A DNA stretch of 64,000 nucleotides from Torpedo marmorata (taxonomy: Eukaryota): positions 39,928,001 to 39,992,000 of the forward strand of contig OZ360230.1 in the NCBI GenBank assembly GCA_977017645.1. The letters run 5' to 3'. The position numbers and the translations under genes are program-made. Each line of letters begins with the position of its first letter. The stretch's first letter is position 1. The notes beneath the pieces were generated by a model, which was given only the letters and a program-made list of their open reading frames with translations, was not told where the DNA came from and did no database searches. Positions 32,486-38,765 of this stretch are shown one piece after another.

Positions 32486-34152
32486 GGGTTAAGGCAATTG
32501 AGACCTTTGTTAACAGCATAGGAGAAAAATCAATATACAACTCAGCTCCCATTTTCAACTTAAAACCAATTCATTCTTAACCACCAATTTAAATAAATCC
32601 CCAAATTTTGCTAATTTTCATACATTTTGGTGACGATATATTACAATTATGAAAAGCAAGTTATGTCAGTTTGCAAATTCAACATTTCAGAATAAAACTG
32701 GCCAAAAATGTTACAACCATTTTTGCATCCAAATATTTTCTATTGTATAGTTTATTTTGTTGAGTTCAAGATTGGCAATTGTTCTGAAAATTCCTTCACT
32801 CAAACCACTGAGAAAGCATTGTGGCTAAAGGTAGCTAGAACTTTCACTCACATTTTCCCCCCGTCCTATTTTTCTATTGGGTTGATTTTATTAAGTAATG
32901 AAAATTAGGAGTGCAGAAACTTTGAAAGATAACACTGGAATGAAAGAGTTTAACCAGGGTCAAGAGTCTTTTAGCAGCCAAATCAGGTTGTGTCATTTCA
33001 ATAATCTAATTACACATAATTATAGTACTCAGGAAGGAAATCAAATTAAATGGCAGTCAGATGCAATTTCTCAGGATGAGCCAAGGCAGTGCATTTATTA
33101 GTTTGCATTTCGACGGACACCTGATAACCATTATGTTCTTCTGTTGCAACTATTTTTTCAATGTACAAACTGTCAAATGCAATAGAAAATTGAGGATAAA
33201 ACACAAGACGACATTTCTATCAGGCCAAATCACAAACATGTTGAGTTCTGCTTATTTTGAACAAATGCTCTTCTTCCCACCACAACTTTACAACAGCTTT
33301 GAAACAGCAACGGATGAAAGAGATAGTCAAAAGGCTGGCTATATAACAGTCATTGAAAAATGATCTGGAAAGAGAACAGCCAGTAAGAACCAATGTGTAA
33401 AATGACCCTTCTGAAGTCAGTGGTACTATTTGAACACTAGGAGCTGAACCATAAATCAGGAATAAAATGTGCCTGCAATGAATGACAAGATCTTAAGATT
33501 ATGACCCTTTAAGACTTCAAAACATCAAGAATTACATTTAACATTCAGTCTTATCAAAAAGTGGCTAGAATGAAGTATGAAGTGTGCAATTGTAGTTTAA
33601 CTGCATCAGACAGCTTATATGCTGCCAGGGTGGGTACAGGAACTTTATGAGAACATTTGTAAAATGCTGGCCAATGTCTTCTGGAGTCACATCCATGTAG
33701 TGAAACACAGAGGTTAAAATTTTACATCACCATCCACTGGAAGTGAATTTAAAGATTCAGAGCAAAATCCGTTCTACTTCTCCTCGAGATACTTCATTTT
33801 ACCCAACTACAGTACATGGGTTGTAGTAGGGTATATACAAGTCATACAAGTTTGTTTAATGTAATGTGTACCAAGATGCAGTGATAACGGCTGTTTTACA
33901 AGCAGACCAGTTGACATCTCATATATACCGTATATTTCGGCGTATAAGTCGACCCCCTTTTTTTAAGCCTCATTTTAATGGTTTTATTGTACATCCGGCG
34001 TATAAGTCGACCCCCAATTTTCGGACTGTCCGGGCCTCCCAGCAACAACCCAAAATTTGTTACAACACCCCAATCACCAAGTAACAAAGCTGTAAATTAA
34101 GCAAGTAAGTTAAAAATAAAGTAAAAAAAAACCTTTGCTTCTGGCCGGGAAG

Positions 34153-34308
34153 ATGCCAAACGGAGCTGGGTCCAAGTCTTCAGCTTCGGCTGCAGCCAGA
34201 GTCGGCGACGGGCCACTCCATTCTCCACATCGGGTGCGGTGCCACCCACATCGAAGAAGTCGCCTCGCTGCCCAAGTGTGCTCTGTGCAGGAACCACGGC
34301 ATGTGTCG
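34153..34308 (+). pseudogene. DMRT1: Captured DMRT1-like exon-1 fragment (start codon to first half of the DM domain)
   Basis: With single-base indels reads MPNGAGSKSSASAAARVGDG/TPFSTSGAVPPTSKKSP(R)/LPKCALCRNHG/VS; vertebrate DMRT1 is MPN...SKKSPRLPKCARCRNHGY(V/A)S. Confidence 0.85.
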
Positions 34309-34575
34309 GCTCCCAGGTAGGAGCGGCGACCTCCTTCTCTCGGGCAGGAGCGGCGACCTCGTTCTCCCGGGCAGGAGCGGCGACCTCATTCTCTCGGCAG
34401 GAGCAGGAACCTCGGCCTCCGTGGCAGAAGCGGTGACCTTGGCTGACGTGGCAGGAGCGGCGACCTCGTTCTCCCAGCAGGTCGGGAATGGACTCGGACT
34501 ATGTGGCAGGAGCGGGAACCTCACCCTACCGGCCAGGAGCCTCGGCTTACCGGGTAGGAGCGGGGACCTCGGGCT
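34309..34575 (+). repeat. GC-rich minisatellite of about 24 bp
   Basis: About 9 units resembling ggcaggagcggcgacctcnttctc. Confidence 0.85.
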
Positions 34576-34844
34576 CTACAATTGTAGAATGTCTGGGTGG
34601 TTTATGGCAGCGCCCAGCGGTGGGGAGGTGCTTCCAGGGTCGACCTATACGCCGAATTGGTTTTTCATGGGTCGACTTATATGCCGAATCGGGTTTTCAA
34701 GGGTCGACATACGCCGAATCAGCGTGGAGAGGTTTTTGAGCTGATTTTAAGGTCTCCAAAGTATATCCGGTGTATAAGTCGACTCCTGTTTTTTGAGAGA
34801 TTTTTGAGGGTTTCAAGACTCGACTTATACGCCAAAATATACGG

Positions 34845-35150
34845 TAATACATTTAGATACAATACAGAAGTGGAATGTTTCAGAGAGATCAGTTGGTACA
34901 GAACAAAGGCAGTGCAATTTTACTATTTTCAAGTTCATTCAGGAGTCTGCTAACAGCCAGAAAGAAACTGTCTTTGAATCCGGTGAAACAGTGAATCTGG
35001 TGGTGCTTGATATCATACTCATAAATCTACTTGATGAGTGCGGGGTGAAGAAAGCGTGGCCGTGGTGGGATAGGTCTTTTAATACGTTGGCTGCTTTTCC
35101 AAGGATTTGGGAGTTTTTAGATGGACGGCAATGTTAATTTGTGTGTGATC
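34845..35150 (-). mobile_element. Degenerate Rex/Babar-type 3' fragment (tail at about 33840-33925), interrupted by the pogo MITE
   Basis: KAANVLKDLSHHGHAFF motif on the minus strand. Confidence 0.55.
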
Positions 35151-36369: not shown

Positions 36370-36625
36370 TTTAATTTTTTTTAAAATTTAGACATACAGC
36401 ACAGTAACAGGCCATTTCGGCCCACGAGTCCATGCCTCCATATTTACACACAATTAACCTACACCCCCGGTACGTTTCGAATGGTGGGAGGAAACCAGAG
36501 CTCCCTAGGAAAACCCACGCAGACACGGGGAGAACATACAAACTCCATACAGGCAGCGTGGGATTCGAACCCTGGTCCCGATTGCTGGCACTGTAAAGGC
36601 ATTGCGCTAACCGCTACGCCAACCA
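36370..36625 (-). mobile_element. tRNA SINE
   Basis: Same family. Confidence 0.9.
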
Positions 36626-37294
36626 TTCATATATTTCAAGAGAGTCTGCTAATCAAGAGAAAACAAGGCTTTCATTGCAAAATAAATTTTAATGTTCAAC
36701 CACAAAGAATAAAAATGCAATTCAACAAATGCACACAATACTTATGAGAAACAGACCGCAATGTTGTCGGTGATCTCCCATGTTAAATTGGCATCTATAT
36801 TTGAATTTCCAATGTCAAAATGCCACTTTTATCCTTGGTCAGTGTTGAAGTGAAGAATAAAAACTAGTCACTCGACAGAAGAATTTAAAACACTTTCTTT
36901 ATGCCAAGAATAAAACAATTCTAATAAATATAATATAGAAAATAAGTATCCAATTAAAAAGGTTAAATCTAATAGCTCAAATACTAAAGAAAATTGATCA
37001 AATATTCAGTACATTACACAATTACTGTAAATAATTCTTCAGTATTTATTTCATGATGTAGCAAATGTACAAGATACCAAAAAGATTTAAATTGTTATTC
37101 AGGGCTCACAAGAACAAAAAAAAAATGCACACTTTGTGCTCCCTTTCAAGTTTATAACATTGTACATAGTCAACCATCAGTTTAAAAAGAATGTTGACAA
37201 TGCTTTGGTTTTCCATTTTCACGAGATTTTATTATTCCATTTATTCCAAAGTCTCATTTACTGCAAGGAAAATGTAACGTCTTCTGTTCTACTA

Positions 37295-37935
37295 CAGTCG
37301 AGTACCCCTTGTCCGAAGATCCAAAAACCAAAAAGATCCAAAAACCGATTTTTTTTTTAGCGTCACAAGTGGAAAAAAATTCAACACCTGACTTGCCCCA
37401 TGTGGGGCTCTGACGCTCTGTTGGCGCCAGTTTGATTACAAATACAGTAAAAAAAAAACCCAAAAAAACCAAATCTTTGCTTCTGGCCGGGAAGATACCA
37501 AACGGAGCTGGGTCCAAGTCTTCAGCATCGGCTGCAGCCGGAGTCGACGACTCCATTCTCAACATCGGGTGCGGTGCCGTCCGCATTGAAGAAGTCGCCT
37601 CAGGCTCCCGGGCAGGAGCGGGAACCGTAGTTGGGGACCGGCGGCGGCAGTGGGGAGGTGTCGGGGACTGGCGGCGGGGAGGTGGTCTTCTTTTGTAAGC
37701 AGAGATCGTTTTTTTTTGGTGAGTACCAAACATTATTTAATGTGAATTTTCCACTTGTGGCGTCATGTCGGCGCTCAAAAAGCCTGCCGTTGTTTGTTGT
37801 TGCTGTTTAACCACTGATACAGGTATTCTGCTGATGCTACTGTGCTGCTTAGTTCCATTGTTCCGAAAACCGAAAAAAAACAAAAACCGAAAAACATCTG
37901 GTCCCAAGCATTTCGGTTAAGGGGTACTCGATCTG
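37295..37935. mobile_element. Tigger4/Zombi(MER46)-like non-autonomous DNA transposon with DMRT1-like cargo
   Basis: TA-cagtcgagtacccctt ... aaggggtactcgatctg TIRs; ctggtcccaagcatttcgg and gcgtcatgtcggcgctcaaaaa resemble Tigger4 as I recall it. Confidence 0.85.
37475..37601 (+). pseudogene. DMRT1: Second DMRT1-like exon-1 fragment (ATG mutated to ATA, truncated after KKSP)
   Basis: Highly similar to 34133-34266: (I)PNGAGSKSSASAAAGVD/TPFSTSGAVPSALKKSP. Confidence 0.8.
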
Positions 37936-38765
37936 AATCGCAATGGATTGGATAATATCATGATTTTCTTCCCCACAATCTCTACAAGTTTCAGCTTTGC
38001 CCATACGGATAAGCATTCAAAGCAATAAAATCCACAATGGAATATAGCTTGTGCAGCAAATAGACAACAAATGCCAAAGAGTTGGTTGAACGAACATTAA
38101 TGGATGTTTGAAACTATGGAAAAGTTAAAGTAGCAGAAATTGCCTGTAAACCTCGAACTCTACATTTACAAGTTTAAATTCTGCTTATTTTATGAATCAA
38201 GGACACAAGAGAATAACACACTCTTCCAATTATTTGTTTTAAATGATCAAGTTAGGAAACAAAATCTTTTCTCGAAACGGAGGCTTGCAGAATTCTTTTG
38301 TCAAAGACAACCTGCATACATGTTCATGTTCCATTCTCACCTTCCTTTTCCCTAGAAACACCTTTACATGTTAACGTTGAGGTAAACATAGCTGGTAACA
38401 CTGAATCGTTTTATGTTTTTGTTACTTTGATTATGTCCAGTTAGAAGTTTGAGTTTTTAAATCCAAAATCTCGTTAGAATTAGGTGACAACTTCCTGAGA
38501 TAACATTTTACTCTGATTAGACCAATCTTACAAATTTTGAATGCACTGCAGCCAGTATGTTACCATGCAGTTACAAATAAGTACTTACCAAATGAATAAA
38601 ACTTAAACTGAACTATACGGTTCAAATTGAATATGCAAAATTATTTCATTTGATGCAAATCTCATTTTAATTAGCTTTTAAAGTTGCTTTCTTATCCCAC
38701 CAAAATTAAAAAATAATTTACCAGTACTTAAATGCACATTGTTGTGATCTGCTTTGCCACAGTAA

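Follow-up and report, generated by a model that had tools for sequence, protein, structure and literature searches.

How does the same fragment of a host gene come to lie in two DNA transposons with different terminal inverted repeats (TIRs)? The question is raised by a window of 64,000 nucleotides from Torpedo marmorata (GenBank assembly GCA_977017645.1, contig OZ360230.1, positions 39,928,001 to 39,992,000 of the forward strand; window positions are used below), in which two neighboring elements, termed elements 1 and 2, both carry sequence of dmrt1, namely of its 5′ untranslated region (UTR), exon 1 and intron 1. An initial annotation of the window had ascribed this cargo to dmrt1 and had proposed a single capture followed by transfer between two lineages of the pogo superfamily. 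The scheme stands, on grounds other than those first given: deletions common to the carriers, and sequence from the Passer side of the junctions found inside the recipients. Beyond it, the analysis points to a third carrier from another superfamily (hAT), to a direction of transfer out of Passer and to a donor subfamily. We consider it probable that a Passer element captured the dmrt1 fragment once, and that the fragment was later copied from one Passer subfamily into Tigger and hAT elements by template switching during break repair.

The two elements are composed as follows.

33926..34846, plus strand: element 1 with its target duplications (element proper 33928-34844), a non-autonomous element assigned to Passer (pogo), main subfamily, flanked by TA at either end
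34027..34312, plus strand: element 1, dmrt1 5′UTR and exon 1, with the ATG at 34153 and a frameshifting 44-bp deletion, stopping within the DM domain
34313..34576, plus strand: element 1, dmrt1 intron-1 minisatellite, units of ~27 bp
34577..34630, plus strand: element 1, linker from the Passer parent, then a remnant of minisatellite 2, of non-dmrt1 origin
37295-37935, plus strand: element 2, full extent, assigned to Tigger, flanked by TA (left) and AA (right)
37293..37434, plus strand: element 2, TA target site, left TIR and left arm of the Tigger family
37435..37601, plus strand: element 2, A-run of the dmrt1 5′UTR and exon 1, with a mutated start codon (37495-37497) and the 44-bp deletion at ~37565; the exon remnant ends at the start of the DM domain
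37602..37626, plus strand: element 2, one unit of the dmrt1 intron-1 minisatellite, joined via the “short” deletion
37627..37687, plus strand: element 2, minisatellite 2, a non-gene marker of transfer
37688..37937, plus strand: element 2, Tigger right arm and right TIR, the TIR ending at 37935, and right target site AA

The TIRs of the two elements differ from each other, as initially noted, and the stretch 37475-37601 resembles 34133-34266 (106 nt at 86% identity and 52 nt at 90%). A 23-mer from exon 1 occurs twice in the window, versus 0.00 occurrences expected from 100 shuffles. Translated across frameshifts, the shared stretch gives the start of DMRT1 and the start of its DM domain. The elements (annotated as within 2.5 kb) are 2.45 kb apart; their cargos are separated by 3.3 kb. 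The right target site, AA in element 2, is TA in its relatives. Like the gene-carrying elements known as Pack-TIRs and Pack-TYPE elements, both have TIRs at either end with a target-site duplication, internal sequence traceable to a host locus that is still in place, cargo-free relatives, and dispersed copies with different flanks.

The host locus was located by a genome search for DM domains, which gave 87 matches among 150 scored candidates. An intact dmrt1 lies at C2:246.43 Mb, upstream of dmrt3-like and dmrt2-like genes on the same strand (the dmrt1-dmrt3-dmrt2 cluster). Its exon 1 holds the DM domain, with named ray and shark DMRT1 proteins as best matches, and four exons within 200 kb match Narcine DMRT1 at 85-97%. 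The captured segment begins 187 bp upstream of the dmrt1 ATG; promoter-like boxes seen by eye further upstream lie outside it. The A-run before the cargo and the GC-rich repeat after it are present as annotated, but in element 1 an additional 45 bases of DM-domain sequence (34267-34312) intervene before the repeat. Moreover, the A-run belongs to the dmrt1 5′UTR and the repeat is the minisatellite of dmrt1 intron 1, so that the original argument from a shared “non-gene” junction fails. The minisatellite (L051:1797-2470) has units of ~30 bp in the living gene versus ~27 bp in the carriers, and in some copies (L020, L096) it has expanded to more than 1 kb. A second cluster of three DM genes, comprising dmrt3-like and dmrt2-like genes and a third DM match, was observed at C22:158.07-158.18 Mb (L031, L038).

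Both window copies are frameshifted and truncated, and the ATG is lost in element 2. Neither has the intact frame and complete DM domain of a functional dmrt1 duplicate of the DM-W or dmrt1bY type, and even the least-deleted carrier copies end short of the end of exon 1.

All three carrier families have cargo-free parents as well as transposase remnants, and each of the two TIR types in the window has such parents of its own, which argues against their being parts of one composite element. In the family of element 1, 22 of 30 copies were cargo-free relatives with transposase remnants. A related 2-kb element (L247), to which these remnants show 83-88% DNA identity, has BrkDBD, HTH_Tnp_Tc5 and DDE_1 domains and DD35D spacing (35 residues, counted by hand), a combination by which Passer is defined in the relevant part of Gao et al. 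(2020, PMC7386202). On the basis of these domains, the spacing and the TA target duplication, the family of element 1 is assigned to Passer. The 2-kb element, with its long transposase frame, lies within intron 2 of dmrt1 itself (C2:246466840-246468881; L246/L247); the same intron also contains a Passer carrier of the gene's own exon 1 (C2:246506777-246507602; L250/L251) and a probable Tigger-type carrier at about C2:246534700 (L253).

The assignment of element 2 is indirect. A 71-aa transposase remnant in its family (L174) gave no match in a Pfam scan, and the Tigger label, which agrees with the initial annotation at family level, derives from homologues of the remnant that carry CENP-B_N, HTH_Tnp_Tc5 and DDE_1 domains, one of them named jerky-like. 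The TIR presumably resembles that of the Tigger4 or Zombi subfamily. The third carrier has 8-bp target duplications; in the 12 of 15 carriers for which both ends were found, the duplication is exact in 7 and has 1-2 mismatches in 5. Although a direct Pfam scan of its transposase remnant (L182) was blank, the remnant is 80-93% identical to ZBED5/SCAND3-like proteins, and these features place the carrier in hAT, in what we take to be the Charlie/Buster group. In domain content, catalytic spacing and target duplications, the parent elements resemble known Passer and Tigger elements, as far as these are treated in Gao et al. (2020, PMC7386202), and hAT elements of the Charlie/Buster type. In contrast, the carriers lack all or nearly all transposase sequence and contain host DNA instead.

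The carriers are abundant. The exon-1 23-mer has 3,094 exact matches in the genome (none for the reversed control), a floor for the number of carriers, as mutated copies are missed by an exact pattern; by eye, just 3 of 12 sampled Tigger carriers retain it. The total may, as a rough guess, approach ~5,000 cargo copies. The initial annotation had suggested sorting cargo matches by their flanking TIRs, and the first 90 of 100 matches listed on C1, taken consecutively, fell into Passer (68) and Tigger (9), but also into the unforeseen hAT carrier (12), with one unclassified. A pattern from the Tigger arm has 811 matches genome-wide. Among 30 sampled Tigger copies, 12 carried the dmrt1 cargo, 8 were empty and 10 carried another cargo, “X”. 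The insertions and deletions of the cargo were recorded in 175 distinct copies, a sample biased by exact-pattern selection, in which 10 Tigger or hAT copies were truncated, with an unreadable right end. An insertion interrupts the copy L086, which had automatically been classed as “short”; L075 and L076 are identical; and L307, an empty hAT copy adjoining a Passer carrier, was counted as empty despite an automatic carrier flag.

A 44-bp segment of exon 1, present in the living gene and ancestral as judged by outgroup proteins, is retained by three copies only, all of them Passer. Their cargo is nearly gene-like, the left Passer/dmrt1 junction has 2-bp microhomology, and Passer-parent sequence resumes after the minisatellite. 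A fourth Passer copy lacks the 44 bp, but its DM remnant is still long, and minisatellite 2 is already present in the right arm. Among 85 Passer copies, the DM remnant is of the “mid” type in 73 (including element 1) and of the “short” type in 8. The Passer copies form a deletion series reaching back to gene-like cargos, in which loss of the 44 bp would have preceded differing losses from the DM domain. All of the Tigger (46 of 46) and hAT (30 of 30) copies with a readable right end combine the 44-bp and “short” deletions, like the 8 “short” Passer copies, and none of these 76 has a cargo longer than “short”. Substitutions relative to the gene at positions 171 and 323 are common to all carrier classes, and the non-CpG divergence of copies from the majority of their own class is 2-4%. 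The cargo has no termini or target duplication of its own that would mark it as a small element nested in its carriers; its ends differ by family and grade into gene or Passer sequence. Minisatellite 2 is absent from dmrt1 and from empty Tigger copies and is embedded in the right arm of Passer carriers. In 200 kb around dmrt1 it has a single match, ~107 kb from exon 1 and near a Tigger-like match; no genome-wide search for its source was made.

The junctions carry the argument further. In the hAT family, 18 of 30 sampled copies were empty, while in the other 12 a 39-bp segment is replaced by the cargo, whose junctions show microhomology of 3 bp and 4 bp; comparison by eye reveals bases of the Passer parent at the right of the cargo and Passer-like bases at its left. 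The Tigger cargo contains minisatellite 2 from the Passer arm. The left junction of element 2 is a deletion product of an older one, the least-deleted Tigger junction, which is kept in 19 copies and has 3-bp microhomology, with no Passer end in any of them. Beside this older junction lies a short inverted copy of adjacent Tigger sequence (by eye), which fits the traces left by templated repair. Since the recipients share the 44-bp and “short” deletions and contain Passer-side sequence without counterpart in the gene, the cargo is likely to have come via the “short” Passer subfamily. The hAT cargo is devoid of minisatellite 2, and the Tigger cargo of the first part of the UTR and of the Passer linker. 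Because each recipient has pieces that are absent from the other, neither cargo would derive from the other, and two separate transfers out of Passer are indicated. Long hAT carriers (L191/L288 and L199/L291) are split by retroelement insertions; L191 retains a transposase remnant, suggesting that a long hAT copy took up the cargo near its right end.

The history proposed here would begin with a single capture of dmrt1 5′UTR, exon 1 and intron-1 minisatellite by a Passer element. The cargo would then have lost 44 bp and, subsequently, differing amounts of the DM domain, giving rise to the “mid” and “short” subfamilies. Where a Tigger or hAT copy was broken, repair synthesis may have switched onto an abundant Passer carrier and back, guided by 2-4 bp of microhomology, and each new chimera would have been amplified by the transposase of its own family. 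Several observations weigh against this history. The 8 sampled “short” Passer copies show 1.8% non-CpG divergence, compared with 3.9% in the oldest Tigger carriers, whereas a donor would be expected to be at least as old as its recipients; exact-pattern sampling and alignment noise in the A-run may lie behind this mismatch. A cargo phylogeny sets the subfamily of element 1 apart (support 96/73), but is otherwise star-like (75 copies, 134 columns), and the direction of transfer consequently depends on the deletions and junctions. Microhomologies of 2-4 bp could be due to chance, and the “short” deletion itself has 5-bp microhomology and might have recurred. One or two bases at the right Tigger junction are unexplained, and the source locus of minisatellite 2 was not found near dmrt1. 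Finally, there are TA sites within the 39 bp lost from hAT, which would suit a nested insertion.

Such nesting would comprise the insertion of a whole Passer carrier into a TA inside Tigger and hAT, the later deletion of both Passer ends and the amplification of the trimmed forms. It shares one capture, two transfers and the end product with the template-switch history and differs in mechanism; serial deletions are typical of these families, and insertions into carriers are common (e.g., L059 and the interrupted copies). However, when 700 bp upstream and 900 bp downstream were inspected, a Passer TIR was found in 0 of 86 Tigger and hAT carriers, among them the 19 least-deleted Tigger and the 12 longest hAT carriers, even though a few early stages of the Passer series are still present. 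Two deletions per family would moreover be required, while hAT itself lost only 39 bp, and we regard the nested route as unlikely. A different order of events, in which a longer Passer cargo was reduced to the “short” form within Tigger or hAT, and this form then recurred in Passer or was converted back into it, would accommodate the apparent ages and the microhomology at the “short” deletion. It would also require that this deletion happened as often as three times, or that a back-transfer took place, and no longer cargo was found among the 76 readable Tigger and hAT copies; we judge it very improbable.

Independent captures of dmrt1 by the three families, with the GC-rich exon 1 and the intron minisatellite as a capture hot spot, gain some plausibility from the gene origin of both A-run and GC repeat, from the uptake of other GC-rich host sequences by the same families and from the capture of dmrta1 exon 1 by a further hAT family. 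The initial annotation had considered such captures the less likely course, and they are now largely refuted, to the point of being scarcely credible, by the identical 44-bp and “short” deletions, the common substitutions, the bases of the Passer parent within the hAT cargo and the presence of minisatellite 2 in the Tigger cargo. Local copying or gene conversion between the two window elements, suggested at first by their proximity as an alternative to high genome-wide abundance, can practically be dismissed. The derived changes of the element 1 subfamily (positions 220 and 254, the longer DM remnant and a partial loss of the UTR) are missing from Tigger carriers and the groups stand apart in the tree, for which reasons element 1 was also rejected as the donor of element 2; the latter has hundreds of relatives. 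At the genome-wide density of copies, ~5-13 pairs as close as that in the window are expected by chance (hand arithmetic for 3,094-5,000 copies in 6.2 Gb), so that local copying is unnecessary and the proposal of high abundance stands.

Two other organisms have contigs that extend from the left flank into element 2, by 33 and 44 letters. The second of these organisms differs by ~6% in that flank, and the insertion of element 2 is therefore older than the split between that organism and the present one. For element 1, a contig of another organism that begins at 34848, with 74 letters unplaced, gives a weak and unconfirmed hint of its absence there. The cargo sequence is covered in sequencing runs of four organisms. 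The carrier copies keep two residues and one codon state that are common to other elasmobranchs and lost in the living dmrt1, so that the capture would predate these changes in the gene; Narcine DMRT1 likewise lacks the two residues. A 6-bp loss is a weak clock, as it also recurs among copies.

Other cargos were observed in this genome. The cargo of a separate hAT-type family (15-bp TIR, 8-bp target duplication) is exon 1 of dmrta1, in which the DM domain is nearly complete, together with the start of the intron; 13 of 20 DM-domain loci examined are of this family (L035, L036, L039-L042, L044-L050; e.g., L046:1124-2618), making dmrta1 the second DM-domain gene captured here. In the Tigger subfamily with “X” (10 of 30 sampled; L151-L153, L156, L158, L168, L170, L172, L173, L179, L260-L279), up to 763 bp of GC-rich sequence stands in for the dmrt1 exon, and both minisatellites, that of the dmrt1 intron and minisatellite 2, have been kept; “X” is likely to be a later cargo swap. 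The best 20 matches of the 763-bp sequence were Tigger-borne, and 12 further matches gave no clear source locus. Other subfamilies of the hAT family that carries dmrt1 (12 of 30 sampled; L185, L194, L195, L200-L203, L205-L209) contain promoter-like sequence, in which motifs presumably resemble YY1 and Banp/ZBTB33 sites, together with a G-rich minisatellite. Between the two window elements, at 36385-36625, lies a SINE-like repeat of extreme depth, unrelated to the cargo.

Gene capture by TIR elements is already known; what is unusual here is the copy number and the relay across families. Animal Pack-TIRs, as summarized in Tan et al. (2021, PMC8277862), number 370 in 100 genomes, four of them multicopy, with one example in three copies. 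They likewise include hAT and Tc/mariner-type elements with host sequence, in one case a 5′UTR, and have breakpoint microhomology (median 2 bp) ascribed to gap filling or fork switching. In contrast, a single cargo has here reached at least 3,094 copies in three families of two superfamilies, and the template for gap filling would have been the carrier of another family, whereas the sections of that paper on Pack-TIRs describe no transfer of cargo between families. The plant Pack-MULE and Pack-TYPE elements, in the parts of Gisby and Catoni (2022, PMC8903248) and of a review (PMC13317346) that deal with them, are similar in being non-autonomous carriers of gene fragments, with empty and filled subgroups, stepwise gain of cargo and clusters of more than 100 copies; here, the host is a vertebrate and the donor of the cargo would be another family's carrier instead of a gene. 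In the hAT-amplified histone H3 of Pseudocercospora fijiensis, as outlined by Dhillon et al. (2019, PMC6710886), one host gene also gave rise to hundreds of dead copies while the original remained intact, but with one carrier type and RIP-killed copies, unlike the partial exon, several thousand copies and three carriers seen here. A literature search turned up neither a dmrt1 cargo nor the movement of a single cargo from one TIR superfamily to another; its scope excluded subscription papers as well as repeat libraries, and prior annotation is possible.

The cargo is most likely a neutral passenger. It seems doubtful, although conceivable, that the relay is a standing process in this lineage, in which GC-rich first exons and promoters, including those of two DM-domain genes, pass between unrelated superfamilies because they aid the carrier's spread or escape from silencing, with thousands of dmrt1 exon-1 copies feeding small RNAs or methylation back onto dmrt1, a testis gene. 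In animals, gene-carrying TIR elements are reportedly seldom multicopy (four in the 100 genomes surveyed, in the account of PMC8277862), and here thousands of copies are present of a cargo that appears to have crossed from pogo to hAT. Because empty parents, early stages and junctions have all been preserved, the route is legible at the level of single bases, and template switching and nesting can be compared within one assembly. In the carrier copies, dmrt1 is preserved in an older state than in the living gene, and work on sex determination in these rays can be misled by such copies in dmrt1 annotation, PCR and read mapping. They also make silencing cross-talk from transposable elements to a gene testable for a vertebrate germline gene.
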